The position numbers and the translations under genes were made by a program. A DNA stretch of 64,000 nucleotides from Antedon mediterranea (Eukaryota; Animalia; Echinodermata), in assembly GCF_964355755.1 (NCBI RefSeq), contig NC_092673.1, positions 12,806,948 to 12,870,947 on the forward strand, read 5' to 3'. This document shows positions 287-52,532 of the stretch, piece by piece. The notes beneath the pieces were generated by a model. That model saw only the letters and a program-made list of their open reading frames with translations. It was not told the DNA's origin and did no database searches. The number at the start of each line of letters is the position of its first letter. The stretch's first letter is position 1.

Positions 287-3200
287 GCCAGTAGATATTA
301 GTATCCTCTATAGAGGCTAGTTTATTTATTTAGATTTACTTCCCTACTACACCTTTAAATCATTAGCATACTTAATAATTACAAAGGTGCATTCTTCAGA
401 AATAACAAAATACAACAAAAACCTCATTATTAATAACGATGAGAATAATGGTGAAAAAAAAAGGATAAATGGTAATAACCTCCCATAAAGCCTATAGCTC
501 CTGGATCAAAATATTATCTTCCACTATCCAAAATTTGAAAATGTCTGCTATCAATCACCAGTTACCCCAAATGAAGAATTACTGTACATGTATGTTGCAT
601 AGGCTGCTATAAATATTAAACTACTATATTTTTATTTAGCCTGCAAGAGAAATACAGGAGGCCTAGAGACTGTAGAAACTAATTACCTTAATTCATCTGG
701 ATCAAGTGATGATGAGATTAAAATCTCTAATCACACAAGTAAGCGTAGTGGTAAGTTTGATATGTCATTAATTTTTAAAACTACTTTTATTAAATAGTAC
801 TTGATGTTGATGGTTGTGCTGTACCTAAAAGATATGGACATTGCTGGTTGTTTCCATTTGTGTCTGATTCTATGGTCAGGTTCTAATGTTATGTCTGTAT
901 GGTATGTAAATAGGTACGACTGTCTAATGAACAAGGCACCTGCACAACCTGTAATTGAACACTCGAAAATTGAAATTGAATTATCTGAACCGAAAAAAAA
1001 ATTGTTTGTCAAAGAATTAAAAGTATCTATATATTAATGCGAATTAGTCACCTAGTTTTACGTAACCTCCAAAACTTCTGAAACCGTATTGACTGATCAC
1101 ATTTTCCGCAATTGGTACCATATAATTGTTATTTTGTTTGTTTGTTTTTTTTGCCAATGGATAATGTAAGTTTATTCTTTCTGTAGAAAAAAGGAAAAGG
1201 AATCACCTACAGCCAATACACAACTTGTATTTGACCTGCTGTTGTGCATTAATGTGCATTGGTATGCTAAATTTTAGAGAAATAAAACAAACAAGGGAAG
1301 CTTTTCAAGCAATGACCGAATATGAACAACGCTGTTGGATCCTTAAAATATTTCAATGAACATCTCAGCACATCCGGAGGTGCCACCAAAATCTGTCTAC
1401 TAGTTGGTGCTAACAAAGTTTGTGCAAAAGCATGGATGTTAGTAAATGGTATTGGCCGGTCAACTTTTTACAAAATAAGGAAGCAAGCTATTGGTAATTA
1501 ATTGTTTAGTTTTACAGTACATTTTACATTATTTAATTTTACATGCTGTTAATATTACTTTTAATGTATGTGTTTAAATGTTGCTGAAACGGAAAGATTA
1601 CTGTGACTGTGTGAAGATTACTTTCCATTATACTTATAGTCGTATTATACAGGGACATAGGCAGGATCTGACGAGGAGTGGAGAATAACTTTTTTTTAAA
1701 TGAATAGAATGCATTTGATTATTGTTTAATTATTTTTACACAATAAAATTAATATGCTTAACACTATGTTAGAAAGATAATGCAAAATGATCATAAGTCA
1801 TTAATCAATGGATTAAACCAAACAATAATAAAATAGTACAGTATTTGAAATTCCTAATATTTGAAGTTTACATTTTATTTCTTTTTAGAAGGATGCTGTT
1901 ATCTTTTACCACCCAACTTCACCAGAAAGATGGTATATAGCAATTCAACTCAACAGTGTCGGGCTTGGTTTATTAAATTTTGTAATGAATACGGTGATCA
2001 AATGCCAACTAATGGACAAATCCATCTACCATCAACGCTTACCAAACATGATGTGTACATGCATATGAAAGATGAGTTTGAGCTAAGAAATGAAGATGTG
2101 TGTGCATTAGCGACATTCTACAAGTTTTGGTGTGTTGAATTCAAGCATATTGTAATACCTGAGGTATGTTTACGTTTTTACACTTATTATGGTTTGTACC
2201 AATGGACAAAATCCATGTCATCTTCATTGACTGAAGTATTTTTTAACGTATTTTCAATGTTATGCAGAAAGTCCTGTAGGTTCAATTTTCATTCATAATA
2301 AAATACTGGAAAAACATACTGTACAATCCAGATGCATGTATGATGGGCCTCACAACTCCTTCCCTACATTCACTATATTGAATGCAAAATTTGTTTAATT
2401 TTATATTTTTACGTGCTGTATTTTTTCAATTTTATTTAATAGGAAAATCGTTTTGCAAAATGCAGCAAATGCACCAGAATTAAATTTGAGCTGCACAAGA
2501 CAAATCAAAAGCAAAAACGGCAAATACTAATGATGAAGAGAGAGAAGCATTTACGAAAACAAAAGTAAGTATGCCTACCTATTTTGTGTACAAAACCAGT
2601 AGTTTAAACCTTTCAACAAGAAATTCTGTTGAACTTGTATACCCGGTATTACCATAGATAGGAAAAATAATTATTGCTTCCACTGTATACCTCCTCTATA
2701 GTATTATTAGTGTTTTTAAAAATAATTCTAACTTAATAAAATTAAGAGTGATTGAAATAAAACAGAAAATAACGGGGAAAAATGGTAGAAAATGAAAATA
2801 ATTATTGTGTATGAACAATGAATGAATAAAAGTGGTTGTAAACAAAAAAAGAGAAAAGATAAACAAAATCATTATTATACAAAAAACCTCTACATTTAAT
2901 CAATAATTTTAATAGATTAGAAGTAAAGCATTGTCTCATCTTGTCTTCGGCTAATAGATAACATATAACTAAACAAAACAAAAATTTATTATTAAATGCA
3001 AAATAAAACTATAAACATATGATTTTAATTTTTCAGTATTGAACGTCGAAAGTACTATAAACATATGCAGAAAGCAAGACAGAATCCCAACAAGTATTTG
3101 TCAATAATTATCGATGGAATGGACCAAAGCAAGACTGATTTACCATCTTTTGCTTGCGAATCAAAAGAAACGTCGAAGATGTGGAAACTAGCCACACATG

Positions 3201-3655
3201 TAACTGGTGTTCTGGTACATGGGCGACATGGGCACTGCTTCATTGACCTAAAGCAGTTTCCACATGACTCAAACCTAACCTGCAACATTATACTGACGGT
3301 GCTGTCAGAGATACAACCTCTACCACCAGTCTTATATCTGCAGTTGGACAATAGCGGAAAGGATAAAAATAAAAACAGATTTGTTTTTGCCCTATGTGCT
3401 CTTCTTGTAGAGTTAAAGATTTTTCGAAAGGTAAATGACTATACATTTATAAATGATATATAAATAATAAAACAGTATACACAGTGCACTTTAAAGAACC
3501 CAGTTCATCATTCATTTACCCTGTTCTCGTTCACCACAAAATATCCCCTGTGTTGGGTGATTTCCACCAGCCTAATAGGACATTAATTAATTTACTATTG
3601 GTAATTATCTATTAAGACATAAAATATTCAATAACATTCTAGTCTAAATAGATGA

Positions 3656-4915
3656 GGCCAAAAAAAAAAAATAGTTTGTTTGCTGTCATCCGCCGCCCCT
3701 AATTTCGCCAAAAATTTGGGGCGGAAATAAGAAAAAGTTTTTTTTTTACGTTGAGGGCGCTTTAAAAAAAAAATTTTTTTTTATAATTTTTTTTGGCCGA
3801 AAAGGTGTAAAAATCGAGTGTGCGAGGATGAAACAATAAAAATAATAACGTAGCGTATATTTCGGTGTATAATCGCACTTTTGACACGCAAATTTAACCT
3901 CTAAATTAAGGGTGCGTCTTATACACCGAACATAAATGCCTCAACACACAGATATCGCCACCTCGTTGGCTAGGCCTGGGCTTTTTAAGGTAAGGCCTAT
4001 TAGTATTACTAAAGTCTAAAGAGTAGGCCTAGCCTAGCTACAGTGTACTAGCGTAACAGCAACCTGCTAGTTTTCAAGGCATTTTAGCGTGATTTTGTAC
4101 TAAATATGATGAAAAGATTTAGGCGCTCCGATAAAATTTCATTTGAAAACGACGTTTACGATTGGAATAGTATTATATAGTTATACGCACGACCGTCGTA
4201 CCCCCAGCGCGAGCGAGCCCTTCTTGGCAACCACATTGTTTACACAGTATTCGACTAGTATATTCTCCAGTTGATTATAGCATAGACCTAGCGTACACAC
4301 TTCAGGATACATAGATACTAATCGAATACGATTGTCCGTGAAAACGTGCGCCTCTCGATAAAAGGATCGAGCGAGGCTAGCCCACACACACGTGTGGTCA
4401 TGCACTCGATATTGCGGGTGCGAAACTCATTCATAACAAGTTAGAAAGAACTAACGGAATGGGGGACTTCCCTTCTTGTTGAGGCTACTGGGCGCGGCCG
4501 TCTTATACATCGACGATATACAAAATACCGATATTTTACTCTCAGTTAGGGGTCGGGTGCGTCTTATTATACACAGGTGCGACTTATACACCGAAATATA
4601 CGGTACACTAACTTCTAAAAATTAAAATATTTAATTAGGCCTGCTAACAACGACCTACTGTGTAGTAGTAGGCCTAGCCTAGGCTAGTTTAGACACGGGG
4701 CCTAACGCGCCCAAAACAGAATTAAAGTGTGAAACAAATTATGAATAGATGTTTGAGCTCGTTGTTTTATTCAGTGTGTTTTGTTACTCTCAAATTCGCG
4801 AGCAATTAACAGAAAAATTAACATTAAAAAAAAAAAAAAAAAAAAATTTTTCCACCCGCCCCCCTACCAAAATAAAAAAACTTGACAGCAAACAAACAAT
4901 TTTTTTTTTTAGGCC
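3656..4915. mobile_element. Non-autonomous TIR element (GGCC ends, Zator/Harbinger-type 3-bp TSD) inside an intron
   Basis: GGCC-A(n)-TAGTTTGTTTGCTGTCA at the left pairs with TGACAGCAAACAAACAA-T(n)-AGGCC at the right. TGA lies on both flanks (3653-3655, 4916-4918). Confidence 0.8.
3853..4603. mobile_element. pogo/Tigger-type MITE nested in the previous element
   Basis: TIR (G/C)CGTATATTTCGGTGTATAA.TCGCAC at both ends with TA flanks. Confidence 0.85.
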
Positions 4916-6700
4916 TGAGGAAAAAATGGAAATATACTAAAAATGTATTTTTTTTATTTTGCTTTGAAAAGTTTTAATTTTAAATCATTACTTCTTTTAC
5001 TCTTTCAGATAAAGATTGGGTTTTTAATGGTGGGTCACACTCACGAGGATATTGACCAATTATTTTCATGTGTGGCCAAATACCTGAACAAATATAGAGC
5101 ATCTACACTTGATCATCTTCGAAGTGCTGTTGAAAACTCGTACAAAAAGTTGCCGATTACATCAAGTATCATTTCCTATCTGCATGACATTAAGAACTGG
5201 TTAGTACCATACATGCAAGACATACGTTACCACAGCAAACCACACCAGTTTAAGTTTGTTTTGGCTCAAACCGGAAAATGCATCATGTCCTATAAGAACT
5301 GGTCAACGGATTGTACTTGGTGTGAATGTGCAAGAGAAATGGACACACTTCCATATTTGCTCAAGGAAAGCCCTGCTGATATACCAGTGTTGTGTACTCC
5401 TGATTTTAGTAATGCAGATATACCAAAGTTAAAAAAAAGTCTGGCGTCTGTTGCAAATTTTTTGCGAATAGAAGAACGTGACTGGTGGGAGGAATTTTTA
5501 AATAATATAGAAGAGATCACAGAAGGTATGTACTGTACTACATTGCATGTGTGATGTTTCACCATTTTACACATATATTTTTTGGTTTACAAGAGAATTT
5601 TGATTTTAGTATAGATTCAGCAGCTATACCAAAATTCAACTCTTTACTCCACACAACTATGTTGGGTCACATTCACCAATGCATGCTTCCACTGATAATT
5701 TTATGTGAGAACCTAAAATTATCAAATAACATGAACGATATCTAGTGGAGTACACTGGAGAAACATGCCTCCTGATTAATTCATAAGATAAAATCAATCA
5801 ATCAGCATCTGATTAGCATGGTGCGCAATGTATTGGCCCAGCTTTTATGCAACAAACACCTCAGCATAAATATATCATGATATTTTGTATGAATGTATAT
5901 TATTTACTTTTTAAAACTAATGCGTACTCTTTTTTTTTAGGAAATGAACAGCGATTTTTGCTCCATGACATCATTTTTAATGACAACAATGCAAGCCCTA
6001 TGAGGGAGGAATCTGATGGAAACGAGACAGACATTAGTGACTCGGATAATGAAAATGAAATAAGACCGGTATGATAAAGATATTATAGATTTTCAAAATT
6101 ACATCTTTGAAACATGTAATGCAACATAGTTTAAAGCAGTGCTTATATTTGGGATATGATCTCATAATCGCATCAAGCAAATGCATCAACGAAAATTCTA
6201 TATTTTTAGGGTTGTAAGAAAAATGATTATGACTTTTCTATGCTTTCTCCCACACTACTAGGTACACATTGGTAAATTTTCGAAGCGTAAGCCACCACAG
6301 CAACTCGATGTTGGTGCTATGGTAGCAACAGCTTTAAGGAGATATCCCACAGAATGGCCTCGGATAGGCAAAATATTCAGCATAAATAACAATGAGGTAG
6401 AAGTAGTGTGGTACACTGGAACGTATACTTCCCGGTTTGTTCTGTGTGAAAAAGATGGACAAGAATGGCGAGAAATAATATCGAAGGAGGAGGTGATAAG
6501 TATATTTAATTTAACACCAACTAGTAGATTGCCTACCAATGTTATTGTTAAATTAAAAGAATTAAGAGATGACTTTTTAAATGAAAGTTAATGCAGGGAG
6601 TTTTACAACTCACTGGTTGTCACAATAGGGTGCACATTAATGGAATTTTACATGTATAATGAATCTAAAAAAAATATTTAATTTTCAACCAATTTCATAA

Positions 6701-7309
6701 TTGTATATAACAGTAGCTCAACCATATACTGTAGTCAAGTTTATGACCATGTAGTTTATATAACAATAGCTCAACCATATACTGTAGTCATAAAGTTTAT
6801 GACCATCTAGTTTGTATAACAGTAGCTCAACAATATACTGTAGTCATAAAGTTTATGACCATGTAGTTTATATAACAATAGCTCAACCATATACTGTAGT
6901 CATAAAGTTTATGACCATGTAGTTTATATAACAATAGCTCAACCATATACTGTAGTCATAATGTTTATGACCATGTAGTTTGTATAACAATAGCTCAATC
7001 ATATACTGTAGTCATAAAGTTTATGACCATGTAGTTTATATAACAATAGCTCAACCATATACTGTAGTCATAAAGTTTATGACCATGTAGTTTATATAAC
7101 AATAGCTCAACCATATACTGTAGTCATAATGTTTATGACCATGTAGTTTATATAACAATAGCTCAACCATATACTGTAGTCATAAAGTTTATGACCGTGT
7201 AGTTTTTATAACAGTAGCTCAACCATATACTGTAGTCAAGTTTATGACCATGTAGTTTTTATAACAATAGCTCAACCATACTGTAGTCATAATGTTTATG
7301 ACCATGTAG
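6701..7309. repeat. 56-bp minisatellite, about 11 copies
   Basis: Unit TATAACAATAGCTCAACCATATACTGTAGTCATAAAGTTTATGACCATGTAGTTTA, with starts 56 bp apart (e.g. 6871, 6927). Confidence 0.95.
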
Positions 7310-7823: not shown

Positions 7824-8414
7824 ATTTGACGACTATTTATTAAAAAAAACTAACCTGAATATAATGTAAAGACCTAAAAATATGATATCTATGACTATTA
7901 ACCTATTAAAAACATCGTAGCCATCATGATTGATGAAGGCACAGACAATGTAAAGTGGCCTAATATCCACATAATATCATCCACATAGAGGCAATTTTGT
8001 GATAAATAAAAATTGCCTGCAAGTATATTGTATTAATATTAATATTATTTTGTGATATGATTATGCTAGTATGTATGCTAGACTTTTATAGAAATAGTAA
8101 ATAATATTTCCTACTTAAATTATGTTTTTATACTATATTTTTAAAGACACCCCTACAAAAATTGAATTGTCCAATTTTAAGTGCTTGTATGACGTGATTT
8201 TTAAGTCTAAATTTTTTTTAAGTTGGTAAAATTAATAGAAAAGGCTGGAAAAACATAATTCATGTGGGGAAAGATGTTTTAGCGCTAAATGCGCACCGTG
8301 CGGGTAAAAAATTGCTAAAGCTGAAAAATATGTACAAAGTGATTGGTAATTGGTAATTTGGTAATCAAAAAGGTTATTACAAAATATTAAAAGGAAAAAT
8401 GCCTTCATTTCTCA

Positions 8415-9700
8415 TTGAAAATCACAAGCAAAGAAATGGAAGCAAACTGCGGAACATTAACGGAGCTCTTATGTGTTGATGTACAATTAAATCAACTGAA
8501 GAAGTTAAGTACTCTAAACCGGGTCAGAAAAAAAAGTCCCTCAGATAAACATCGCTGTGCTAACTCAACAACTGAAATAATCCTTAGCGACAGTCAATGA
8601 TCAAAAGAAAACAATATCAGTTTTAGAAAACGACAATTGCGAATTACAAGATCAAGAAACAACTGTTATTTCAACCAGAAAGGGATCTAAAATAAATTAT
8701 GTCATAAAAGAAGCGTCCATGTATTTACAGGATCTAGGGGTAGCAGAGGGTAGGCATGGTCCTGCCATACAATGAATTGTAAAAACGGTAACACCCTGTC
8801 AACTAGAAGGTGCATTGCCCTCAAAAACACACAACAAAGAAATAACTCTGAAATATGATGGGACAACGAAGACGGGACGTCATCTTGTGGAGGTGCAATT
8901 AGTAATGAATGAGAACACTTACACACTGTGGATCGAAGGAACAGCAGGGGGGACTGACATTGTATTAATGATATGGTAAAAGAAGTAAATGTAGATTTGT
9001 AATGAACAATTGCAGTTGACAGACAATTTGAAGAACTGGCGGGACATAATATCAATTCATTTCAATGTGCCCCTTGACACCATACATAGACAAACAGAAA
9101 AAAAAATTAAGGAAAACGAACTGACACTGAACATACAGTAGATACTGATAAAGAAAAAATGCCTTACACAAACAGCTCAACTGAAAGATCATCTTTCTGA
9201 AGGCAAGTATTATCAGCAATCTGAAGCCCTGCGCACTGAAGCATGTTCGTGTTGAAGCGATAACATATCTGAGGAAAGAGTATTTGCAGTATGGGATGTC
9301 AGAAAGCAATTGTCTCGTACAGCATCTACAGCCAAGTATCTGCCAAGACCATGTTCAAACTGAATAAGGTACATCAAGGGCAGAACTATTTAGGGACAAA
9401 ATTATTTAGGACTAAGGATGCAGCGAAAGACCAAAAGAAAGACCGAGAGAAAGAATTATTACTGATGAGTGATGTCCAGAAGAGGCTAGAGAATTCGAGA
9501 AAGGTGATAGGGAGAGAAGATTATAGAATCGATAATTACAAATGGTTTTTATGAAAAGGAAGATGAGGTTCACATGGGAGTTTCAGGCATAATGAAGACG
9601 AGGGCTACTTCCGTATTGAAAGCAAAGATAAAGTTCAGAACATCTATGCTGTGCTGTCCTCCAAGAAAGTTGTTAATCTCAAAAGTACCTGCAGACAATA
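8415..9700 (+). pseudogene. Heavily decayed paralogue of the 53538-56539 transposase
   Basis: ITLKYDGTTKTGRHLVEVQL (about 8842-8905) vs TTIKYDGTTKKRNHFLEVQI; PLDT (about 9070) vs HPLDT; SDNISEERVFAVWD (about 9256-9297) vs NNNISGERIFGLLD. Many stops and deletions. Confidence 0.75.
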
Positions 9701-12345: not shown

Positions 12346-13460
12346 TGATAATGCAGCACTGCTAAAAAAAAACCAGATGTGCTGATGTTGACGCACCTGC
12401 TACATGTGCTGACACTGATACATCTGCACCAGACGCAACTTCTAGTAGCAGCAATGATGACAGTAGCATACACTATTTCCTTTACGAAGCGATGGGCAAT
12501 CGCCGTAAGTTTTTTTTTATACATGTACTTTTATCTTGTTGTGGAGAAAATACAAATTGACCCCTGCCTACAAAAAACGTACATTTTGATTATTTTGCAT
12601 TTTGTACAAGATGATTGTTCTCCTAAAAAAAAAATGTTAAAATTTTGTTTTTGCATGCCATTTTAATGTCACATAATAGTTATCCACTTTGACCAAAAAT
12701 TTGATAGGAAAACAAATATTTACTTGAAAAAACTGTAATTTAAAGCAAAAAAATAGTCAAATTGGATTGTTATAATAGTAATACTATGACTTATTTGCAA
12801 CGCAGTATTTAAGATTGTTTGTGTCGCCAGTAAAAATTATCTCTTTAACAGGTCAAAATTGCTTGACAAAATCGACCAGCTAACTCAAAAGCAGCAAATT
12901 ATGGAAACAATGCTGGAGAATATATTGAATGCAGTCACCTCACAACCACCACCATCGCTACAACCACCACATATTTCGATATCCCAGCAGAAGGAAGCCA
13001 TGACTCCTCCACAACCAGCTCAGCCCTCGCCACCCCAGCTAACGGAAGTCGTCGCCCTCCCACCAAATCAACAACAGCCACCGCAACACCAATCTACAAC
13101 CAGATCGCTGTTAGCAATTGTAGCACAACCACGACTACAACCCGGGCCAACAGGAATGGTGCTGGTTGGCGGTACGCATCCAGTTTCAAATGAAGATTAT
13201 CATCGCGCAGTATCAGGTACATCAAACGCGAAATCATTTACCCGGCATTTGACTACTGTTCAGAGCACAGGAGAATCTAATCTAACTGGGTCAAAGGTAA
13301 AAATCAATGGAAATACCATCATTCGTAAACACTGTCACCTGATCGCATGACCGCAATGTTCCGCCAAGTTGAACTACAACACCCTGGCTCAATTTCAACT
13401 CAACAAAAAGCCATTAGAGAAGCGGTAAATGGCAAGTGCCAATCACACCGCTTTAATAAT
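12346..13460 (+). pseudogene. BEN-domain gene remnant (type A), with a coiled coil and Pro/Gln linker
   Basis: Exon-like 12346-12505, then a last exon from about 12852 with GMVLVGG..SNLTGSK..(frameshift)..MFRQVELQHPG..IREAVNGKC, collinear with 32388-32903. Confidence 0.7.
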
Positions 13461-15007
13461 AGACAATAATATATTAAATCTTGTTTTTAAACTGATCTTG
13501 TATTGTTATTAAATTTTTTATTTATTCGTATGTATATTTATAAATGCTAATAAAATTAAATTGAGTTTAGTATTGTTTTCAATATTGTTTTAAATATGTA
13601 AAACAATAATATATTCAATTTTGTTTTTAAACTGATCTTGTATTGTTATTACATTTTTTATTTGTTTGTTCTCGTTCGTTCTCGTTTTCACTCGAGCTGC
13701 AAGACATAGATCCTATACTTCAATATCGATCGTTTTCACAATGTTGTAAAATAATGGAAATACAGTACTGACTACAAATCATGTACCCTAAACCGCGTTT
13801 GTCACGCGTGTAAAATGTGTGTAATTGCCGCGGACCTGTAATCGGCGTGTGGTCCATGACGTCAGCTACTTCCTGCTACAATGTGGAATTCACGGTCCTT
13901 GACGATCGTGAAACAGTGCGTGCTTGAATAGTTGTTGTTTATTTAATTTGTGTTAAGGAACGCGACCATGATTATGTAACCAGAACACTCCTGTCACTGT
14001 AATGTAACAAAGTTTACTTCTGTCTATTGTTATCCATAAAAAAAAACCAAAACAAAGGATGAGAATTTGATGATTTTAGAAGGCCAAATGTTAGAAATAA
14101 TAATCCAAACACCGAATGTCGAATTGGTTTAATAATAAATATTCTGTTCGGTTTGATGTATAAATTGCATTGCATATATTTTTCCATTAAAATTAGCCTA
14201 ATCGAGTATTAGTCCAAGGCCACAAATCATTGCGTGTTTATTCATCAGGCGATAACGGCTCTCGGCGGCCAATTCCACTGGCTCATTGTACTTGTTGAGT
14301 AGGGCCTACAACGCGACATTTCCAGTTACTCTAGTAATTTTAATAATTAACAACGTATAATATATAATCCGTCATAAACAAAACAGTAACTAATTTTTAG
14401 GCCTATTTCACTCTATACACTCTACGGCATGCATAGCGTGTTGGTTTTGACCTTAGGAAATGGTATGACCCAACCAATCAACGCATTCCACTCCACAGTA
14501 CTCTACAGTATAAACGGAAAGTTTCCAGATTTAATTTCTAGTCATTTTAGTAATTACAAGGTAAAATTTATATTCATAAAAACCCAACGAAAGTTTTTAT
14601 GAAAAAATACACGTCAAAATAACAATAACATTTACATCATTATTTGCGAATGGCCAATTAAATTCGTTCGTTTTTGATGACGGAAACTTAAATTGAAAAT
14701 ACTTTAGTTGATGGAAACTTCTATTATATTCTAATATGAAAAATAATATTAATGTATTATATTACAAAGTTTTTGAACTGTGTCTGAATGATTGATGCGA
14801 TATCCAGAAAAGACTTCTAAAAAAAAAACAAAAAAAAAAAACCTCTATATTTTAAACGTTTCCGACGTATATTTATTTATAAACGTATATTTGTAATGCA
14901 AAATAGATAATGTAAACAAACCCAAATGTATGTACATTTAAACATTCATTTAAAATATGCAAAATTGGTATCCATTTTTTATCATGCATCATCGTGAAGG
15001 AGATATC

Positions 15008-15083
15008 AGCCAATCAGATTGTTTACGTCGTCGATTGGATAATTCCTTTATAAGATTTGGGCGTGGTTCTTGACAGGTATAAA
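15008..15083 (+). promoter_or_regulatory. CCAAT/TATA promoter of the Tc1-like gene
   Basis: AGCCAATCAG at 15008-15017, inverted CCAAT at 15034-15038, and TATAAA at 15078-15083, about 40 nt before the ATG at 15120. Confidence 0.55.
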
Positions 15084-15119
15084 TTTTGTGTTTCTAAATA
15101 AAAATTTCACTGCCCAAAA

Positions 15120-16105
15120 ATGAAAGGTCAACTATCATTGTATCTGAGAGAACGGATTGTCCGTTTGAACGAGCTGGGCATGCGCCAAAGAAGAATTGTT
15201 GATGTTCTCCGGGAAGAAGAGTAGGTGGAAGTTGAGAGACACACTGTGGGGAGAATAATTAAAACTTACAAGGAAACCGGTTCATGGGCTGCAAGAATTC
15301 GATCAGGGCGTAAACCAAAATTCACTATCGAGCACGCTCACTTCATTGACGACCTTTACCGAGATGATGATGAGTTAACTTCCTACCAAATATCGGGTAT
15401 CTTCCGTGACGTATTTGATCTAAATGTTTAGGCATCCACAATAAGAAGAAGCCGAAACAAGTTAGGATGGAAGAAAAGCGGACCAAAATACTGCCAAATG
15501 ATTAGCGATGTAAATAAGGTGAAGCGGTTAGAATTTTGTACCCGAATGCTAGAGGATGGAGATATGTTTGAAGACGTGATATGGACTGACGAGACTTCCA
15601 TTCACCTGGAGCAGCATGGAAAGGTGTGCTTCTACAAAAAAGGAGAGGAGCCAAAACTTAAACCAAAGGCTAAACACCCGGTAAAGGTTCACGTTTGGGG
15701 GGGAATCAGTTTCAGAGGTACCACCAATTTCCTAATTTTCGGGAGAAACATGAATGCGGAGTTTTATGTTAACGCTGCAACCGTATAGTCGTCACATGTT
15801 CCCTGATTCACATAGTTTCCAACAAGACAATGATCCTAAACATACAAGTAATTTATCCACACGATATATGGAAGAACATGGGATAAATTGGTGGAAGACT
15901 CAACCCGAATCACCAGATCTCAACCCGATTGAAAACGTCTGGCATCAACTGAAGAATAATCTTCGACGACATGCAAAACCAAAAAATCAACAGGAACTTA
16001 TCAATGGCATAGAAAATTGGTGGAAAACCACATTGACACCTGAATTATGCGGCAGATACATCCGACATATTCATAAAGTGATAGCTGTCGTGATCCGGAT
16101 ACTGA
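15120..16105 (+). pseudogene. Tc1-like DD34E transposase
   Basis: N-terminal HTH, RSGRKPK, IWTDET, VWGGIS and FQQDNDPKH...SPDLNPIENVW with 34 residues between the second D and E. Two in-frame stops and small deletions. The likely native C-terminus is SGY*, with TGA at 16103-16105. Confidence 0.93.
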
Positions 16106-16134
16106 AGTTTAAGACCAACATTTTCAAAACAAAT

Positions 16135-16170
16135 GGCTCTTTTCAGAGCCACAAATTGACAAAAGAGATT
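16135..16170 (+). terminator. Histone-type 3' stem-loop plus HDE-like element
   Basis: GGCTCT-TTTC-AGAGCC at 16135-16150, A/C-rich 5' flank, ACAAA after the stem, AAGAGATT at 16163-16170. Confidence 0.88.
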
Positions 16171-16838
16171 TGAAAGTATTACATTTTGCCAAACCACACA
16201 CTTACAAAAAACGAGTCATTCATCATATTTACATACAATATAAAAGTATAGTATACAACATTCCATTCATTAAAATATGAAAATTAGTTTTATTCAAACA
16301 ACTTAAGAAATGCTAAGCCTTAAAAAGTACATAAAATAATATATCAATGATTGAGCACTTTTAGTGGATATGTGCGCTATATAAATTATTTATTATCATG
16401 ATTGCAGCGTTGTGTTGCATGTACGGTTGTTCAGTTTCATGTATTTTGTTGTTTATGTGACCACTAGAGCGTGAACAGCGCGTCTACACAGTATAATAAG
16501 ACCTGGGATTGAAAACATAAAATGGAATAGAAATGTTGTACGGTCATGCTTAAATTTAATCAAAATAAAACTATGGTAATTCCAATTCTTAATTAATTTG
16601 ATAATTATCAAGTCAGATTCTTGAACATTGCGAAAATGATTGAAACGTCAAATTTACCTGAAATTATTCAATCTGTCAATATTATATTAATTTTTATTTG
16701 TGTATGCCTTTTATGTTGTGTGTTATTTCACACAACATGTTATTTATTATTATAATAATAATTATTATTTAGAGTTTAATGTGGTATGTTTTGAAGGTGA
16801 CTGGTTTCTATGTGGGGTTTGCCATTTTAAATGCTTTA

Positions 16839-16868
16839 AATCTCTTTTGTTTTTTTTGGAAAAGAGCC
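16839..16868 (-). terminator. Damaged histone-type stem-loop plus HDE-like element
   Basis: The minus strand reads CAAAACAAAC-GGCTCTTTTC-C-A(n)-CAAAAGAGATT. The 3' arm AGAGCC is missing. It begins 18 nt after the TAA of the BEN gene. Confidence 0.7.
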
Positions 16869-16886
16869 GTTTGTTTTGAGATATAA

Positions 16887-17490
16887 TTAGAAATCGATGA
16901 ATGGTTCAGCAGGTTGGGGTTCTTGAATTTGTTGCATCGGTGCTCGTGGTTGGAGTGGTGCTCGTGGTCTGGGACTTCGCAGACACCTGCATCCCTCGTC
17001 GATCGCTAACACACAAAGCTTCCACGTTCGTGTTTGTTCATTCAATGGAATTGTATAGGATTTGATGACTCAATGGCCCTGTTTTCCCATTAACGTTACT
17101 CATTCGCATCTCATTCTTGGTGAATAGTTTTCTAACAAGTCCGAGTGCAAAAATTTCTTTTAGAAGTGGCCCACCTTTTGACTTCTGCAACGGCATCTCT
17201 ATGCAGTACGTCGTCACCCACAGAGTTGCGGGGGAGGCGACACAGTTATTTTAAAATTCCTGGGCGATCAGTTCAGAGACGATATTTTTTATATTTTGCG
17301 TCAGGTCGGCCAACCAAGGAGGGGCTTCATTATGTTTTGTGTCGATGTACTCACGTAGTCGCCGTTCCATTCCTGCAATACTGTCAAACACATCTACTGC
17401 TGGGGGTACTTCAGGTTCTGGTTCTTCTACATCTGACTCTTCAACATGCATACCATCGCCTGTTACGTCCCCGCGAAGAAACACCCTGGG
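16887..17490 (-). pseudogene. BEN-domain gene 3' part (type B), convergent with the Tc1-like gene
   Basis: The minus strand, across frameshifts, reads ...ATSKRNF-ALGLVRKLFTKNEMRMSNVNGKTG...TWKLCVLAIDEGCR...EPFIDF*, with the stop at 16887-16889. Confidence 0.8.
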
Positions 17491-17496
17491 TACCTG

Positions 17497-18066
17497 TGGC
17501 CGTATTCACCAATCTCACTTAGGCTAAGGGAAATACTTACCCTTAAAATTTAAGAATTCCCTTAACAAAGGAAAACACTTAAGGGGTATTCACAAATGAG
17601 TTAAGGGATTCACTTACCTAAGGGAAACCCTTACTTTTAAGTAAAACACTTAAGGGAAAAATATATCAATATTCATGAGTTTCCCATTGTCCAATCAAAA
17701 AGAGAAACAATGTGTCCAATATCCAATCACTTTCCCTCATTCAAACCTCATTTGCATATTCAATGAAAACTTTTGCTGGCAACAAAAAAATGGCAGCAAC
17801 TAAACGAAAACCTAATTGGAAGGACGAAGAAAAGGAGGTGTTGGTAGCCGAGTATGGAAAAAGAAAAAATATTTTAAGAGCTGCTTTTGATAGTAAAATA
17901 ACCTATCAACAAAAAACAACAGCCTGGCAAGAGATTACCGCTGCTGTCAAACAAACAAATCCAACTGCCGGCAGGGACCAACAAAATGTCCAAAAAAAAT
18001 GGGAAAACCTTGTGTCGCAGGCTATGCAGAACATTACATCGTTCAAAAAAGACATTATGCAAACAG
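17497..18066 (+). mobile_element. PIF/Harbinger left end with a Myb/SANT-like exon (ATG 17790, donor after 18066)
   Basis: Terminus TGGCCGTATTCACCAA, repeated CACTTAAGGG subterminal motifs, and protein KRKPNWKDEEKEVLV...KTTAWQEITAAV...RDQQNVQKKWENL. No right end found. Confidence 0.75.
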
Positions 18067-18442
18067 GTAAAATTTAGTTTAATATTATGACTGTTTGTAG
18101 TCCTATAAATACGTTTTAATGCCAAAATGTAGTTGTTGTTAGGGAACATCACTCCAATGGAATAGGCCGATATGCTTCTTTACTTAGACTAACTTTAATT
18201 AGTTTTTTGCCGGAGATAGGCCCTAGAGGCCGGGAGGCCTTTTATTTAAAAACAAAGTTGATCATGATTGATTAGTTAGGAGGACTCGCGATAATACACG
18301 CCCACCGTACAATAGATAAAATAAATCGTAAATTTTGTTTAAAGTCTTAGAGTAAAAAAATGGGCATTGAAATGTGTGTGGGTGTGTGTGTTAACAACCC
18401 CAGAGTTAAATTATTGAATAAACTTTTTTTTAATCAACTTAC

Positions 18443-18836
18443 GTCTTTGACCTTCGGTTTTTTTGCAGCCTGTTTTGGTTTCGGTGTCGACGTTTTTGTT
18501 AGCATTGCCGCACGCTTTGACGTTGTCGGTTGCTCGTCGTCATCGGTATCACTATCAATCAGAGTCTTCTTCGCTATCCACGTCAGTGTCTTGGGCTTGC
18601 CCACTCTTCAACAATTTTCTTTCCAATTCACGCAATTCATGGGGATTATTGGACAGTTTGCGGATGACTGCAGGGAGCAAATTCCCCTCCCATAGTACCT
18701 CCACTGCTGCTCCAGACGAAACATCACCGACGATCAATTTTGTTTTAACGATACTTAAACTTTCTTCTTCGGGAAAGTAAACTAACGCCTCGCATGGAAT
18801 ACTTGAACGTTGACGAGCTGACATAGGTTTAAACAT
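18443..18836 (-). pseudogene. First exon of a BEN-type accessory gene (ALVYF N-terminal domain)
   Basis: EALVYFPEEESLSIVKTKL..VEVLWEG..IRKLS aligns with HALVYFDSDESTAIVLSKKL..VKMVYNK..IVELS at 30143. GTAAGT donor at 18442. TATAAAA (18888-18894) and CCAAT (18914-18918) lie upstream on the minus strand. Confidence 0.7.
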
Positions 18837-19240
18837 TTTGTTGATTCAGAAAACTGAACTGGTACATGAACATTGAAATGCTCGTACTTTTATAGATTGT
18901 GAGCCCTGCTCTGATTGGCTGGAGAACATAAAACTTTTAACATGCACAAACATAATTGTACACAATTGGTCAGCTAGCTTTTCTCATTAACGTAACGCCC
19001 ACCCACACAATAACAAACACCAATCCATCTTTATTTGTAAATGTGATAATTAGCTCTAAAATACATGAGTTAAAAAATATTTATAAATGTTTGTGCAGTT
19101 GATTTTAAAAAAAAACACATTTTAAAGATAAAAAGAACAATAAAGTATCCCATACTGCGCGGTACACATATGCTTTCGTTCAAACCCAGCAAAATACTAC
19201 ACACAACTAAATATAATATATATATATATATATAATTATA

Positions 19241-20019: not shown

Positions 20020-20977
20020 TAGCGATACATTGTACGCATTATCGTTGGGGTTGAAATGGATGTGGGTATGACTATGATTTCCCATATCTCAAAAACTATT
20101 TCTGCGTCGTCTTTTCACTTGCGAAACATCCGAAGGATTCGCAAGTTTATAAATGAGACAGCAGCTAAACAACTTGTTCATGCTTTTGTCACTTCACGAC
20201 TAGATATGGGAAACTCTTTGCTATACGGGCTACCACAAAAACAACTCCACAGGCTCCAACTGATTCAAAATACAGCGGCACGAGTTGTTAAAAAATTACC
20301 AAGATATGGACACATATCAAATACTTTGGAAATATTGCATTGGCTCCCTGTTAGGTACCGCATTGTTTTTAAAATATTACTCTTTGTTTTTAAGTCTATA
20401 AATGGCATGGCTCCTGAGTATATTTCTGACATGCTTAGGCTGTATGTTCCCGGACCGGACGTAATCTGCGTTCTAGTGACTCGCTGCTTCTACATCAGCC
20501 TAAGTCTCACCACTCATGGGGTGACAGAGCATTCTCCGTTACTGCTCCTCGTCTGTGGAATGCTCTACCGAGCTCTATAAGATTTTGCAAAACTGTTGAT
20601 ACTTTTAAAAAATTATTAAAAACACATTTATTCATTAAGGCATATGGAAATCATGAGGTTTCTTAAAGTTTTTTAGACTTACAATTGTTTTTTATACCTT
20701 TTCCTGGCCAGCATTATCTTTGGGGTGCCTCTGTCTTGGTTGTTGTCTCTGAGCACCCGGTCGTCTGTGGCAAGGCAAATGTGTATCCTGCTCCTTTGTT
20801 TGGTCACCTAGGTAGGGGTCCGGGACCGCGACAGAACGACAACAGATGGGGACCCTCCAAAGAAATTGCATTTTATTTTTCAGGAATTTGTATGATTTAT
20901 TTCTTTTTTATTTTTAAATGCGCCTTGAGCACTCTGGAGTGGTATGTGCGCTATAAAAATCTTATTATTATTATTAT
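20020..20977 (+). mobile_element. 5'-truncated L2/CR1-group LINE (RT C-terminus, 3' UTR and tail)
   Basis: FHLRNIRRIR...LVHAFVTSRLD.GNSLLYGLP...LQLIQNTAAR...LHWLPVRYRIVFKILL; ends GCGCCTTGAGCAC...GTGCGCTATAAAAAT-(TTA)n. Confidence 0.9.
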
Positions 20978-28512: not shown

Positions 28513-30142
28513 TTAACAATAACGTGGTTTGTTCGCGTACCATAGTATTTAATAATTAGCATAATATCAATACATTTATTGGACAATGAACGAACAGTAA
28601 AACAATACAGAATGAATAAAAATCATACGGTACAATTTCTGTGACTTAATATACTATGGACTTAAAACAATGTATTAAACGCCCAATTGAATTTCGCTGT
28701 TAGTTTGAAAATTAACAGAAAACGATACACGAGTGCACTGAATATCGTGCTAAATATAGATATATTTGTACTGTAATTTCTATTGAAAAAGATAGATTAA
28801 TTTACAAATTGTTTTAACAACGGTAATTTTTCAAAAAGAACAGAACAGATTTGCTTATATTATTGTGGAGGAACCTGTACCATAGTATACTATATATTTC
28901 CAATTCACCATAATGCCTAAAAGGGGAGGTGGTTTTATAGCTGTCACTGCTTGCTGCTTCTTTGGTACTTGACAAATCACACCTCAATATGCAATTAACT
29001 GATGACCAGATCTTCTCTCTCTAGTATGTAAAAGCGTTGGATAGAAATTCTAATTATTAACCTTTTGTATTATAATCCTTTTGTATTTCGACACTGTTTA
29101 TATGAAGCTATTTGACACAGCTGTTAAATTGTTAATTTCAGAAGCCATTGAATTTGCCCTTTGCGTTGGCTTATTATTTTTCGTTTATTTTATTATTATC
29201 CTTATTCTATATTTTATTTTAATAAATGCAGTTTACTTGTTAGGCCTTCGTTACGACTGCTCAGTACCAGATTGCCTGATTTTGAAAATTGTCTTCTGTT
29301 TAAAATATTGATGATAATAAAAAAAAGTGGTCCAGAATTGGGATCCCATAATACTATTGAATACTCATTGACCCATATCTGTATGTGGTTTCAATGTGTT
29401 AAAGATCTGGAATAAGTTCGTTTTAGTAATCATGCTACTAACATAGACTACATAAACCCCCTTGGCGGAGGTAATAAACACACATTAAAAGAATACATTT
29501 TGACGACTTTTCTACTACTACAATGACGAACACAGGTATTAGCCAAATATGTAACCTGTTTAAATTACTCCCACACAAATTCACAATAGTTGTGATCTTA
29601 TTCAAGTTGTTCACACTATTATACTTTCTTACACTGACGGTGTAAAATATAGTTACTTATAGTTAATTAATTTGCTTTATTTTCAATTCATTATGTTCTT
29701 AAAAATGAGTTTTAAATCACATATCGAAGACTGTGGCTGCTGATAATTTTGAATTTTTAGTATTGCAATATCTCTTGTGGGGAAGCGTGAGGTACCTATA
29801 TTTAAATTAACAATTTTAATATTAATTTTTGTATTTGTTATACTGTTTTGTGAACACCTTGCAAATTGTTATTTTCAAATCCCATTATTTGTGCATTTGT
29901 GTTGGCTTTTAGTCGTAGATAATTTGGCTGTTTATTTTAATATACAGCATTGTTTTAGTTTTCATTACGTAATATACCACGCCTTCACTGTTTACCTGAA
30001 GCCTGAGAAAGTTTGATTTGAGCATCTTTGGAATGCGTCCCTGTGCAGTCCAGTAAACAATAGTGTCAATAAATGCACAGTCGAGGCATCCATAACTATC
30101 ACTTCATCATAATTATTTCTACAAGTAACATCGAATTTTAAA

Positions 30143-32903
30143 ATGTCTCTACGCCGTCAGAAAACTGTTGTACCAGAACATGCTTTGGTCTATTTTGATT
30201 CAGACGAAAGTACAGCAATTGTACTATCTAAGAAGTTGCAGGGAGACAAAGTTCCTAACGGTGTCGTTAAAATGGTATACAACAAACAACAATTAACGTG
30301 CCGCATTGTGGAACTTTCTGATACATCTGATGATTTAGTTCACAAAGACACACTGTTCTGGGAGAAACGCAAGCGAAAGCTTGGTAAGAAATGTTATATT
30401 ATAGTTATTCATTCAAATAGTGAATGAATAATATTTATTTTAACTTCTTAAATACCAGACCTACTGTTGTACTTGCTGTCGAATGTTATCGTGAACATAC
30501 GAGTTGACGTAATACAGACATTATCCACGCATTGTACGTTCTCGAGGCTGGTCGATTATTTAACAATTTTTACGCCAAAATTGATAAAAATGCGCACTAA
30601 AAAAATGTATATTTTGCATATTACACTTTATTATAATTATATTTAAAATATTTAATCGTACCTCAATATTAGCCTATATAACATGTATTTTGTAATGGCA
30701 CAAGCCATATTTGTAACAGTAGGCCTATTGTTTTTTCTGAAATCATAATAAAATTAAATTATAGGCGCAATCAAATTTTAAACCTAATGATTTAATATAT
30801 TTATGACTGTACTTTCTTTTATTAAATTATAGACTTAAACTTAATATCCTTTATATTTTGTCATTCCTGTATAACTGATTAATCATTTTATATCGACAGA
30901 TGATGACTCTGAAGTTACTGTTGACTCCCCTAACAAAAAATCATGGGAAGAATGACCCCAGGAAAGATGTCAACACAGAAAATGAGAGACCAAAGAAAGA
31001 CCAAACGGAAAATGAGAAACCCAAGAATGACCAAACGGAAAATGACCAAACAGAAACGGAGAAACCCAAGAATGACCAAACGGAAAAAGAAAACCCCAAG
31101 AATGACCAAACGGAAAATGACCAAACAGAAACGGAGAAACCCAGGAATGACCAAAGGGAAAAGGAGAAATCCAAGAGTGACCAAACGGAAAAGGAGAAAC
31201 CAAATAATGACCAAACAGAAAAGGAGAAACCCAAGAATGACCAAACAGAAAAGGAGAAACCCAAGAATGACCAAACGGACAAGGAGAAACCAAATAATGA
31301 CCAAACGGACAAAGAGAAACCAAATAATGAGCAAACGGAAAATGAACGACCGATCCCGAATTTTGACATCCAACCCCAGTCACCCAACGCCGTAATCGTG
31401 ACGGAATTCGAGAGTCCATCGGAAAGCGGTAAGTCCTGCAATTTGTTTTGTTTAAAAAAAGTAAATAACAACATAAAATCACAGTAATAAGTAACATCAT
31501 GAATAGTAATTTACATTAACGATTCAAATATTACATACACACAAACTTGGAGAAGCAAAATAATGAAACAAAACGTGTATATTCTAGATTAGATTAATAC
31601 CTAAAAATACAGACTCCAACGACGGCATTTTAATAACGGTGTGTAACGTTTAATAACAGCATATAAATATATTATGAAACCCTCGAATTTATTTACTAGA
31701 CAAGTAATTGGCAGGGCTCCAATGGTATGAACTACCCTGGGTAAATAAATGAAATAAATAAATAAACCATTATGTTGTTCCCAAACTAGGTGTTGTGTAT
31801 AACAATTATCATTGACATTTTTTTAATTATAGACATTGAGCTTGATATCGATTCCGACCTTCTTGTCGAAGTCCTTGCTGGTCCTCTATTGAGCAGCACA
31901 GTCTTAAGTAGTAAGTATATATCACTTTGAATAATAGTAAGTATTTGCCTTTGGATTTATGTACTATTCTAATGTTTTCATCAAATGCTGTTGTGGGTAC
32001 TTTAAAACAAAGAAATCTATCTATATCTTTAGTACTGTATAACTACTTTGGCTCTTAAATACGTACCTCATTCTTTGACAAATAACAGGACTCAATTTTG
32101 ACATTTCCAACTGTTACCTATTTCATTGAATTTATTTATTTTGTATTATCTTCCCAACTTTAACTTAAATGGTTTTTTTTTCTTTTAATTTGTAAAAATC
32201 GGTGTTTTGACCCATTTTAAACTATACACAGTGAATGTAAATTAATATTAACTTGGCACCGCATTGGCCTGTTATATTTTTGATATTATAAAAACGTTGG
32301 GCATCCTATACGATTATATTAAATGAATGTTATACATTTCTTCTTTCAGATCAAACTGGATGTACGGCATGCGCTTGCGCAAAGTGCATGAAGGTCCCAA
32401 ACATGCTGGAAACAATTATAACAAATCAAAGAATTATTATGCAGCAGCTAACCACCCGGTTAGGTTATACTCAACAAGTGCAGCAAGTAGCAGCTCCGCC
32501 GACCAATGCCTTACTTGGTGAAACAAATGGTAAAGCTGACAGTAATGGCATTGTTCATATAGGGGGGCTGGTGCCCGTAGCCGAGGAAAAGTACAAAGCC
32601 GCAGTTGGCGTTGGCAAAAATAAGTCAGCAACAAAAATGACTAGAAGACTGCTGGACATAATGTTCACACAGGAGGAGCTAGCAGTATCTAATTTGTACG
32701 GCTCTAAGAAAATAGAGAATGGCAAACTTGTCACAAGGCCAGCACTAGAAGCGCCACGTTCGCGGGCACTTTTCAGACAAATTGAACAGGAATTTCCTGG
32801 TGCCACCTCAGACAATTATTTAGCTTTAAAAGAGGCTGTCAATAGTAAATGCCGAAGAATTAGAGAAATACTTAAAGGTAGTGAAAATGTAACACCAAAA
32901 TAG
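30143..32903 (+). CDS. Four-exon BEN-domain protein gene (type A), with one apparent homopolymer frameshift
   Basis: Exons 30143-30383, 30900-31428, 31833-31910 and 32350-32903 with phase-1 GT-AG junctions. The last exon has CxxCxCxxC, a coiled coil and the BEN-like TRRLLDIMFTQEELAVSNLYG...LFRQIE...KEAVNSKCR. The A-run near 30935 is one base too long to keep frame. Confidence 0.75.
30980..31345 (+). repeat. Coding 30-bp minisatellite (EKPKNDQTEK)n
   Basis: Repeated GAGAAACCCAAGAATGACCAAACGGAAAAG variants, open in frame. Confidence 0.92.
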
Positions 32904-45740: not shown

Positions 45741-47245
45741 CGTCGTGAGGTGGTTTCCCGATTAATCGTACGATCAAACGGTACTGGGTATGATCAACTA
45801 GCGTTCGTGTTCCCACCTAATCATCCATTCATAGAAGTACTGATGAAGATATCAATCTGTGGCGACAATAGAATGGACCCGAGACCTGGCTATCTTCGAC
45901 TTTTAAATAATAGAAAGTTTAGAAAAATGTTTTTGTTAAACTAGAAATGTACGTTGTATGTATATAGAAAAATGGTTGTAATTTTCAAAATTACGTTGTA
46001 TAAGTTGCGATGTGAAAAACTGTTATTTTATCGTTAGTTGTCGTGTACATAAAGCAAAAATATAAATAGCCTATAATAAAATAAAATAAAAATCGTTAGT
46101 AAAACTTTTAAAAAGAGTAAAGATATAAGGAAGAAAAGCAAAGAGATCATGGAGCGGCTGTACCAGAAAATACAACACTAAGTATTGTAAAGTTAAAAAC
46201 TAAAAATTTAGGCGATCTTGTCAAAGGTCAAGCGCCTTCAGCCTGCCACGTTTCGATATTCAATATTGAACTTGACCTGACGTGGTTCCACAATATCTTT
46301 ATATGAAAATGGTAGAATTGATAGAAAATAATAATTAATTCAAAATTTACCTAAAAATGGTTTTGAACTGAATCGATGAATGTCTTGTCGTCGTATGGTT
46401 TTGGTTTGGTTTAAAAGTATGTTCGATAAAGTGCGTGAGCGTATTAGAATGAAATGCTAGCGTATACAATGTGCGCGATGTCAAGTTGTGTACTGTGTGA
46501 TACATGTAAGATTATAAGTGTATCGTACATTGTAGTAGAGCGAAAATAACATAGGTATAAAGGTAGGATATAAATAAGTAGTATAGGATGTATAGAAAAG
46601 GGAATGGGTTGTTAGTTACAGGAAAGATTTTGAATGTCGTGAGGTGGTTTCCCGATTAATCGTACGATCAAACGGTACTGGGTATGATCAACTAGCGTTC
46701 GTGTCAAGTTCAAGGTCAAGTTCAATATTGAATATCGAAACGTGGCAGGCTGAAGGCGCTTGACCTTTGACAAGATCGCCTAATTTTTTAGTTTTAACTT
46801 TACAATACTTAGTGTTGTATATTCTGGTACAGCCGCTCCATGATCTCTTTGCTTTTCTTCCTTATATCTTTTTTAAGTTATACTAACAATTTTTATTTTA
46901 TTTTATTTTATTTTATTATATTTATGTTTTTGCTTTATGTACACGACAACTAACGATCAAATAACAGTTTTTCACATCGCAACTTATACAACGTAATTTT
47001 GAAAACTACAACCATTTTTCTATATACATACAACGTACATTTCTAGTCTAACAAAAAATTTTCTAAACTTTCTATTATTTAAAAGTCGAAGATAGCCAGG
47101 TCTCGGGTCCATTCTATTGTCGCCACAGATTGATATCTTCATCAGTACTTCTATGAATGGATGATTAGGTGGGAACACGAACGCTAGTTGATCATACCCA
47201 GTACCGTTTGATCGTACGATTAATCGGGAAACTACCATACGACAC
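45741..47245. mobile_element. Foldback element with ~540-bp inverted arms
   Basis: 45741-46279 is the near-exact reverse complement of about 46713-47245. ORFs 45750+ and 47238- translate almost identically. Confidence 0.85.
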
Positions 47246-52347: not shown

Positions 52348-52349
52348 TA

Positions 52350-52532
52350 AAGGGTCTTTCACACCTGTTCCGGCATTGTTCCGGTCCGGCGAATCAAACA
52401 TCAATGTTTCGTTTTCACGCGGCTATGCGCCAATCGATATGTGCGTAGCCGCGTGAAAACGAAACATTGGCGTTTGATTGGATTTTCCGGCGCCTGACCG
52501 GAACCGTGCCGGAACAGGTGTGAAAGACCCTT
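52350..52532. mobile_element. Intact palindromic MITE, same family as 48388
   Basis: TA|AAGGGTCTTTCACACCTGTTCCGGCA ... TGCCGGAACAGGTGTGAAAGACCCTT|TA. Confidence 0.88.

Follow-up and report, generated by a model that had tools for sequence, protein, structure and literature searches.

The 64,000-nt stretch of Antedon mediterranea DNA analysed here (NC_092673.1, positions 12,806,948 to 12,870,947, forward strand; hereafter the window, in whose coordinates all positions are given) is AT-rich animal DNA crowded with decayed mobile elements. One of these, at 14506-18950, is a decayed and dead copy of a two-gene DNA transposon of the Tc1-like (DD34E) type, in which a transposase gene on the plus strand and a spliced second gene on the minus strand converge, and in which the transposase gene ends in a stem-loop of the kind found in histone mRNAs. 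From left to right, the features at the locus are:

14504..14530, plus strand: TA target site and candidate left terminal inverted repeat (TIR), starting with TA followed by CAGTA, 614 bp 5' of the transposase ATG
15008..15084, plus strand: putative promoter region of the transposase, with a CCAAT box at 15008, a reverse CCAAT and a TATA at 15078
15120..16105, plus strand: Tc1-like transposase pseudogene, with paired-type helix-turn-helix (HTH) and DD34E, intronless
16135..16150, plus strand: canonical histone 3' stem-loop (Rfam RF00032)
16160..16171, plus strand: purine-rich downstream element, a candidate histone downstream element (HDE), with its AAAAG core 10 nt past the hairpin
16804..16880, minus strand: 3' cassette of the transposase, repeated in inverted orientation past the second gene, with the 3' arm partly missing
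16887..17493, minus strand: last exon of the second gene, with an acidic stretch, a helical stretch, a BEN domain and a proline-rich tail; stops and a frameshift
17498..18070, plus strand: incomplete Harbinger-type insertion with a left end GGCC... and a Myb/SANT exon, inside the intron of the second gene
18443..18836, minus strand: first exon of the second gene, with a predicted Tudor-like domain and a basic and acidic linker; one frameshift; GTAAGT donor
18889..18920, minus strand: putative promoter region of the second gene, with a CCAAT box at 18920-18911 and a TATA at 18894

The convergent arrangement had been claimed in a preliminary description of this DNA and was confirmed: the minus-strand gene ends at 16887, and about 700 bp separate the two 3' signals.

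The transposase reading frame runs from an ATG at 15120 to a TGA at 16103-16105; its damage consists of a frameshift near 15787, two stops in frame and, ahead of the GY-stop ending of the family, a short deletion. In Pfam, it matched DDE_3 (E = 1.8e-11) and PAX (E = 4.7e-5, above the cut-off), with further matches below the cut-off to HTH_32, HTH_Tnp_Tc3_2 and HTH_SB. The spacing from the second D to the E is 34 residues in the window and in 8 of the 10 relatives printed in this comparison, in which L071 has 31 and L001 was not parsed. The window transposase thus has both the paired-type HTH region and the DD34E triad of Tc1-like elements. The family departs from their single open reading frame (ORF) and 1-3 kb length in having a second gene and in the size of its complete relatives (6.3-9.0 kb). 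TA-flanked TIRs are present in L011, L030, L053, L040, L083 and L088, and the window shows the left end only. This end, at 14504-14526, reads TA and then CAGTATAAACGGAAAGTTTCC; it is of the same type (TA, then CAGT) as the left ends of L011, L030, L053, L067 and L088, it is nearest to that of L045, and its distance to the transposase equals that of the relatives' TIRs. We found no right TIR by ungapped scans, by a TACAGT scan to 32 kb or by blastn-short, in agreement with the preliminary statement of a candidate left TIR that lacks a right partner. Directly to the right of the element, at 20023-20666 (plus strand), lies the 3' fragment of an ORF that we take to be LINE-like (it has no Pfam match), which may have removed the right end.

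The 3' end of the transposase gene carries a match to Rfam RF00032 (Histone3) at 16130-16174 (38 bits, E = 1.6e-7), which is one of two Rfam matches in the 64 kb. The stem-loop begins 29 nt past the transposase stop codon, within the range of about 25-60 nt expected of a histone-type end, and it is predicted to fold (z = -2.8) into a hairpin with the features of the histone signal: a 6-bp stem whose second pair is G-C, and a 4-nt loop with U as its first and third letters. A passage of bioRxiv 10.64898/2026.10.14.759114 places metazoan histone hairpins at a median of 30 nt after the stop codon, with pair 2 being G-C and loop position 3 being U, so that the hairpins of the window and its relatives match the metazoan histone signal in both position and make-up. 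Ten nucleotides past the window hairpin lies the element AAAAGAGA; the candidate U7-pairing stretch is AAAAGAGATTT in the window and AAAAGTCA(A)TGA in relatives. The window transposase has no intron, and its first poly(A) hexamer lies only at 163 nt after the stop.

We assessed how widely this signal is spread among relatives of the transposase. A protein search gave 41 transposase homologues with 31-56% identity, and a 20-row alignment was used to find at least 544 related metagenome-contig stretches, the best 80 of which make up the main sample; 22 further loci came from genome bins, of which 19 were examined and 3 short ones were left out. A hairpin was scored if it deviated from the consensus at no more than 3 positions and formed 5 or 6 of the 6 stem pairs. 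Such a hairpin lies within about 130 nt of the transposase end in 38 of the 80 loci, while 26 complete ends have none and 16 could not be scored; elsewhere in the 80 loci, the background is 3 matches in 818,754 nt. L074, at first unscored, has the hairpin behind an intron. Among the bin loci, only 1 of 19 has the hairpin (L083). The last hairpin lies about 7-105 nt past the stop in relatives.

Many of the loci are close duplicates of one another. When they were clustered at 80% identity together with the window, 39 clusters resulted, of which 12 are positive, 1 is mixed, 19 are negative and 7 are unscored, and the lowest pairwise identity among hairpin-positive transposases is 41%. On a 43-row tree, the positives fall into several well-supported groups with a base that is not resolved, and the window row sits on a long branch; two changes suffice for the distribution of the hairpin on this tree, and a single clade of hairpin-bearing transposases is neither rejected (p-AU 0.5) nor proven. 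The hairpin and the AAAAG element are kept in at least three deep lineages of relatives. The hosts of the largest positive group are likely stony corals, since the named proteins nearest to its second gene are from Oculina and Montipora. None of 46 candidates from viral contigs proved to be a relative of the transposase, and searches of viral contigs with two hairpin-plus-element patterns returned 0 and 0. We also observed intact-looking 343-aa members of the transposase group in Xenopus laevis (P0035, P0087; three loci), and we noted that several prokaryotic genome bins (loci L081-L089 and L091; bins G001-G004) contain long animal contigs, including a tandem histone cluster, which represent host contamination.

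The hairpin is kept as a structure. Among 34 distinct hairpins, 99% of 204 stem cells are paired, compared to 28-51% in slid controls, and two stem pairs covary (pair 1, G-C/A-U; pair 6, U-A/U-G/C-G); the covariation score of the real alignment was reached by 0 of 500 shuffles, a type of test that related sequences inflate. With a spacer that varies in between, A(A/T)AAG(T/C) follows 13-15 nt past the last hairpin in 33 of 37 loci; behind the upstream member of tandem hairpins, the element is found in 0 of 19 loci. The claim of a histone-type end on the transposase therefore stands as both real and conserved, given the Rfam match, the 38 of 80 loci and the covariation, and we conclude from these alignments that the transposase's histone-type 3' end is conserved and the hairpin under selection.

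The tandem hairpins (L003-L014, L019, L020, L037, L048, L057, L083) are separated by a conserved 55-nt GC-rich segment. The 136-nt region that spans them has a predicted alternative fold (z = -4.3) in which the hairpins pair with each other, a possible switch.

The second gene is divided between two exons. Exon 1 (18836-18443) ends at a phase-0 GTAAGT donor, the last exon (17493-16887) begins at a phase-0 CAG acceptor, and each has one net frameshift. The splice sites, together with a 418-aa protein of the coral Oculina that holds the Tudor-like and BEN domains in one chain, back the earlier inference that the first exon and the BEN exon belong to one gene. The Harbinger fragment reported between them was likewise verified, by a match to Pfam PF13873 (Myb/SANT; E = 1.3e-16); we take this insertion (17498-18070) to be of Harbinger type from its pattern of TIR and Myb gene, and a search for its right end found none.

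With regard to the BEN domain, the window's own broken pieces have no match to Pfam BEN (PF10523), the search that the preliminary description had proposed as a check. However, they do match profiles of the relatives that were built without the window rows (E = 1.1e-6 for exon 1; 2.8e-6 and 2.8e-5 for the BEN pieces; 1525 window ORFs). PF10523 is matched by 10 of 17 aligned second-gene members, and a profile of the C-terminal domain matches structure chains of BEND3 (E = 2.8e-12) and BANP (E = 2.4e-9). The N-terminal domain, which has no match in Pfam, Tudor included, is predicted by AlphaFold to be a beta barrel (pLDDT 80.7), and its best fold matches are the Tudor domain of ARID4B (Z 8.2, rmsd 4.0, 61 aligned), ARID4A (Z 7.2) and KDM4C (Z 5.9), with a Foldseek E of 3e-3 against Tudor domains. 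Thus, the modelled N-terminal domain is likely Tudor-like. Three more BEN-like genes lie in the window, all on the plus strand (12790-13460, 30113-32900 and 36784-37038); upstream of the BEN-like ORF at 30167, which also weakly matches the Tudor-like N-terminal domain, there is a transposase-like ORF set at 25.7-27.5 kb.

The linkage of the transposase and the BEN gene in one element, as first proposed for the window, is supported by the relatives. Using profiles iterated from locus seeds, we found the N-terminal or the BEN domain in 32 of the 80 related loci; among the 44 loci that have long flanks, the number is 25. The layouts are convergent, tandem or divergent. Both genes lie inside TA-flanked TIRs in L011 (8.8 kb), L030 (9.0 kb) and L053 (6.3 kb), and the second gene is thus a regular part of the transposon family. 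L067 was dropped as a complete element because its second TIR-like copy is in direct orientation. The distant relatives L071, L072, L076 and L080 are single-gene elements of 1.29 kb that have neither the second gene nor the hairpin.

The preliminary description had seen histone-type ends on both genes, and this part of it held for the transposase only. At 18 nt past the stop of the second gene, a copy of the signal has kept its downstream element, its 5' flank and the hairpin's 5' arm, but it is 5-6 nt short in the 3' arm, fails to fold as a hairpin and has no Rfam match. CAAAACAAAYGGCTCTTTTC occurs at 16125 (plus strand) and 16878 (minus strand), with a chance mean of 0.01. For about 30 nt past the signal, too, the two 3' ends resemble each other, at a score reached by 15 of 5000 random stretches; a further histone-type hairpin, at 57.3 kb of the window, lacks this resemblance. 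Since the likeness extends beyond the signal, we read the hairpin of the second gene as a probable local inverted duplication of the cassette at the transposase 3' end, broken in the window copy. Local inverted duplication was the outcome that had been named as speaking against a true minus-strand signal; it is half borne out, in that the likeness exceeds the signal and yet the copy sits where a working signal would. In relatives, the hairpin was found at 0 of 15 BEN-gene ends. Splicing of the second gene, its broken hairpin and the lack of a hairpin at the BEN-gene ends of relatives all speak against co-regulation of both genes through histone-type ends as a trait of the family.

The CCAAT and TATA promoters described for both genes are present, in that AGCCAATCAG at 15008 (plus strand) and 18920 (minus strand) is found at only these 2 places in the 64 kb (chance mean 0.09; 0 of 100 shuffles had 2), accompanied by TATA at 15078 and 18894. 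A histone-type promoter as a trait of the family was rejected: of the 26 upstream regions from positive loci, 11 have CCAAT and 5 have TATA, and of the 10 from negative loci, 2 and 4. Upstream of the transposase in the L002-L048 group, visual inspection picked out an RFX X-box-like motif, which occurs in 16 of the 34 promoters of hairpin-positive loci and in 0 of the 22 of negative loci; it is absent from the window.

Histone genes of the hosts and other mobile genes bear on where the signal comes from. Bin G001 contains both the hairpin-bearing element L083 and a tandem histone cluster, and the five cluster histone genes and the element have in common the hairpin class, the flanks and the AAAAG core. 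The element's version of the signal recurs on 6 contigs of this bin (7 matches; reversed control 0), where it stands behind the Tc1-like transposase of the present family, the end of an ORF that we take to be a Mutator-like transposase (by its motif; it has no Pfam match), two HIRAN-like ORFs (below the cut-off) and in two further places. In G002, an H3 gene and several repeated non-histone ORFs have one hairpin variant, which is also found behind a DUF7869 ORF in G004, and five Tc1-like relatives in G002 have no hairpin although the H3 gene of the bin has one. Thus, the trait tracks the element lineage and not just the host, and on these comparisons the signal is exchanged among the mobile genes of one host, following element lineages. 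This hairpin-plus-AAAAGTC cassette of G001 (L140-L144, L150-L156) is common to mobile genes of one host and distinct from that of the host histone cluster. Non-histone ORFs that end in single or tandem histone-type hairpins were noted at L107, L109, L113, L117, L119, L121 and L147 in G002, L110 in G004, L105 in G003, and L106 and L111 in G005.

Since the stem-loop is conserved and so is the downstream element, SLBP likely binds the transposase mRNA and the U7 machinery likely cuts it. We favour, with slightly more confidence than doubt, a model in which this mRNA is SLBP-bound, cut by U7/CPSF73 and confined to S phase and to histone-rich germ cells, with the Tudor-BEN protein as a helper. The anatomy of the element, the linkage of its genes and the conservation of the signal are observed, and the steps of the model at the level of RNA and protein are inferred. 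In this model, SLBP would bind the hairpin of the transposase message, and U7/CPSF73 would cleave about 5 nt past the hairpin to yield a message that lacks poly(A) and that is made and kept only in S phase; the nearby hexamer would give a second, polyadenylated form of the transcript in many relatives. Cut-and-paste elements gain copies by excising after replication, when repair can be templated by the sister. Excision from an already replicated chromatid, followed by repair from the sister, would yield a gain in copy number, and this gain would be the selective benefit of the signal. By analogy to the second proteins of Harbinger and CACTA elements, the Tudor-BEN protein may be a DNA- and chromatin-binding helper that acts on the element ends or on the promoter. 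Only in the lineage of the window would the 3' cassette have been duplicated onto the second gene, where it has since decayed in the window copy. We consider the broader proposal evenly balanced between right and wrong, namely that SLBP and U7 are used by an old two-gene Tc1-like lineage of stony corals and of the unrelated window animal as well as by several further DNA-transposon genes of these hosts, giving S-phase and germ-line transposase.

A number of observations weigh against this model. Of 37 positive relatives, 28 have AATAAA or ATTAAA at a distance of no more than 45 nt from the hairpin (background 0.065), such that their message may be polyadenylated. GT-AG introns occur alongside the hairpin in L038, L073 and L074, which also rejects the idea that the hairpin is restricted to intronless transposases; a passage of PMC5011920 describes a two-exon histone gene with the hairpin in Hydractinia. 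No U7 RNA scored above the cut-off in the 5 bins searched, and only 5 of the 20 loci submitted reached the Rfam gathering score. In G001, the stem letters and the bases that follow AAAAG are not the same in the histone genes as in the element, and the distance from hairpin to AAAAG is 14-15 nt in the former and 11 nt in the latter. By sequence, then, the element's signal is no plain or recent copy of that of the canonical histone cluster, and the equation of its downstream element with the host histone HDE holds only partly (in G001, for the AAAAG core alone). Moreover, the positive relatives come from few related contig series and not from independent hosts. As for the helper, repeat arrays at the element ends, which are the expected target of a BEN protein, are significant in L030, L040 and L053 but not in L011, L013, L067 and the window, so that subterminal arrays are not a general mark of two-gene elements.

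We considered that the hairpin might bind SLBP in a message that is polyadenylated just downstream, with the gain lying in storage in oocytes and early embryos and in control of translation, rather than in U7 cleavage and S phase. The nearby hexamers, which overlap the AAAAG element in 12 of the 28 relatives, are as expected from this account, as are the tolerance of introns and the difference between the downstream sequence of the G001 element and that of the histone cluster. RFX boxes are linked to germ-line expression, and the enrichment of the RFX-like box in hairpin-positive promoters hints at such expression here. There is also a precedent, in that polyadenylation of Drosophila maternal histone mRNAs is SLBP-dependent and U7-independent, as stated in PMC11997800. 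Nevertheless, a U7 ruler would predict the fixed distance of 13-15 nt at which the purine element lies in 33 of 37 loci, no hexamer occurs until 163 nt in the window, and 9 of the 37 relatives have none; we regard this account as unlikely, if still the strongest competitor of the S-phase model. Less probable again, and in our judgement improbable, is that the cassette is a self-limiting or shielding device, which would provide clean termination, a message that is short-lived or invisible to poly(A)-based silencing, and no read-through into the second gene, with timing as a by-product. Tandem hairpins in 19 loci, the upstream one of which lacks the downstream element, could serve such an end, and the cassette also stands behind unrelated mobile-type genes in one bin, while the window genes are convergent. 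However, the hairpin is kept in divergent and tandem layouts, in which the genes do not collide, and the convergent relatives L042, L053, L054 and L067 have none.

Finally, the hairpin could be without function, a passenger picked up a single time, with a histone gene or a small mobile cassette as its source, and the BEN gene could be a chance neighbour. Such an origin would accommodate the dead state of the window copy, the frequency of BEN-like ORFs in the window (12790, 32292, 36784) and the occurrence of the cassette behind several unrelated genes. It is largely refuted, and we give it very little credence, by the 99% pairing and compensatory changes that persist despite 41% transposase identity and a variable spacer, by the position of the hairpin, always directly past the stop, and by the presence of both genes within one TIR pair in L011, L030 and L053.

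Apart from the transposon, the window contains two tandem canonical histone stem-loops at 57279-57350 (plus strand; Rfam 42.3 bits), the second of which has a TAAGAGATTT element. Ahead of them come a stretch resembling a short terminal exon (acceptor near 57172) and, 740 bp away, a large ORF set at 53523-56539 that is broken. No histone gene is seen there, and this is the second case in the genome in which the signal stands apart from histone genes. This ORF set (plus strand) is transposase-like, encodes about 1000 aa and has a weak C-terminal Tudor/Agenet match; a more decayed paralogue lies at 8368-9650 (plus strand). At 1858-5554 (plus strand) is a spliced, two-exon DUF7869 (transposase-like) gene with a Pfam E of about 1e-33. 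The window also contains a 56-bp tandem array (6704-7309), a 1.5-kb element with 540-bp inverted arms (45742-47244), a 4-kb inverted-arm element (48386-52534) and a 324-bp tandem repeat (62768-63761).

The histone-ended two-gene Tc1-like family is apparently undescribed so far. Among the matches listed in our literature searches, which covered titles and abstract openings and lay outside Repbase and subscription journals, we found neither a histone-type stem-loop in a transposase gene nor a BEN gene in a Tc1-like element. If the S-phase model is true, a transposase lineage targeted by SLBP would break the histone-only rule for the hairpin, and would offer an answer to how cut-and-paste elements time their jumps to DNA replication and thereby multiply. 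Moreover, transposase mRNAs of this kind would be missed by poly(A)-selected RNA-seq, and element activity in corals and other invertebrates may be under-counted. Intact relatives are at hand (e.g., L011, L030, L033). With a Tudor-like plus BEN helper, Tc1-type elements would join the transposons of two-gene design, and many BEN genes annotated as 'hypothetical' in invertebrates may be explained by such helpers.

Compared to known systems, the transposase and element ends are those of Tc1-like elements of the IS630/Tc1/mariner group (DD34E), with the paired-type HTH, the DD34E triad, the TA site and TIRs starting with CAGT. In contrast to the single ORF and 1-3 kb that a passage of bioRxiv 10.1101/656579 gives for Tc1-like transposons, the family studied here has elements of 4-9 kb, a spliced second gene and a histone-type 3' end. 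The L31 elements of Puzakov and co-workers, an ITm group of marine invertebrates (bivalves, hexacorals), reportedly also have a second ORF, and in this they resemble our family. The two are set apart by label, as L31 is labelled DD37E, beside Tec, in a passage of PMC7325037; given the spacing of 34, we did not assign our family to L31. With histone mRNA ends (RF00032, HDE), the transposase end has in common the 16-nt hairpin, the A-rich 5' flank, the AC(C/A)A 3' flank, the purine element and a distance of about 30 nt from the stop, but here the signal belongs to a transposase gene, is often in tandem, often has a poly(A) hexamer nearby and is sometimes found with introns. This use contrasts with the description, in a passage of PMC4604434, of the hairpin as exclusive to replication-dependent histone mRNAs, the only targets of SLBP.

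With respect to the second protein, similarity to BEND3 and BANP is that of the BEN profile; here, one BEN domain follows a Tudor-like domain, on a mobile element. Both the Myb-like protein of Harbinger and TnpA of CACTA are DNA-binding helpers encoded inside the TIRs. Extra ORFs are also carried by the ciliate Tec/TBE elements (for Tec, in a passage of PMC7325037). Our family is like these two-gene transposons (Harbinger, CACTA, Tec/TBE) in placing a putative helper gene inside the TIRs, and differs from them in that the helper is a Tudor-like plus BEN protein and the transposase is of the Tc1 type.

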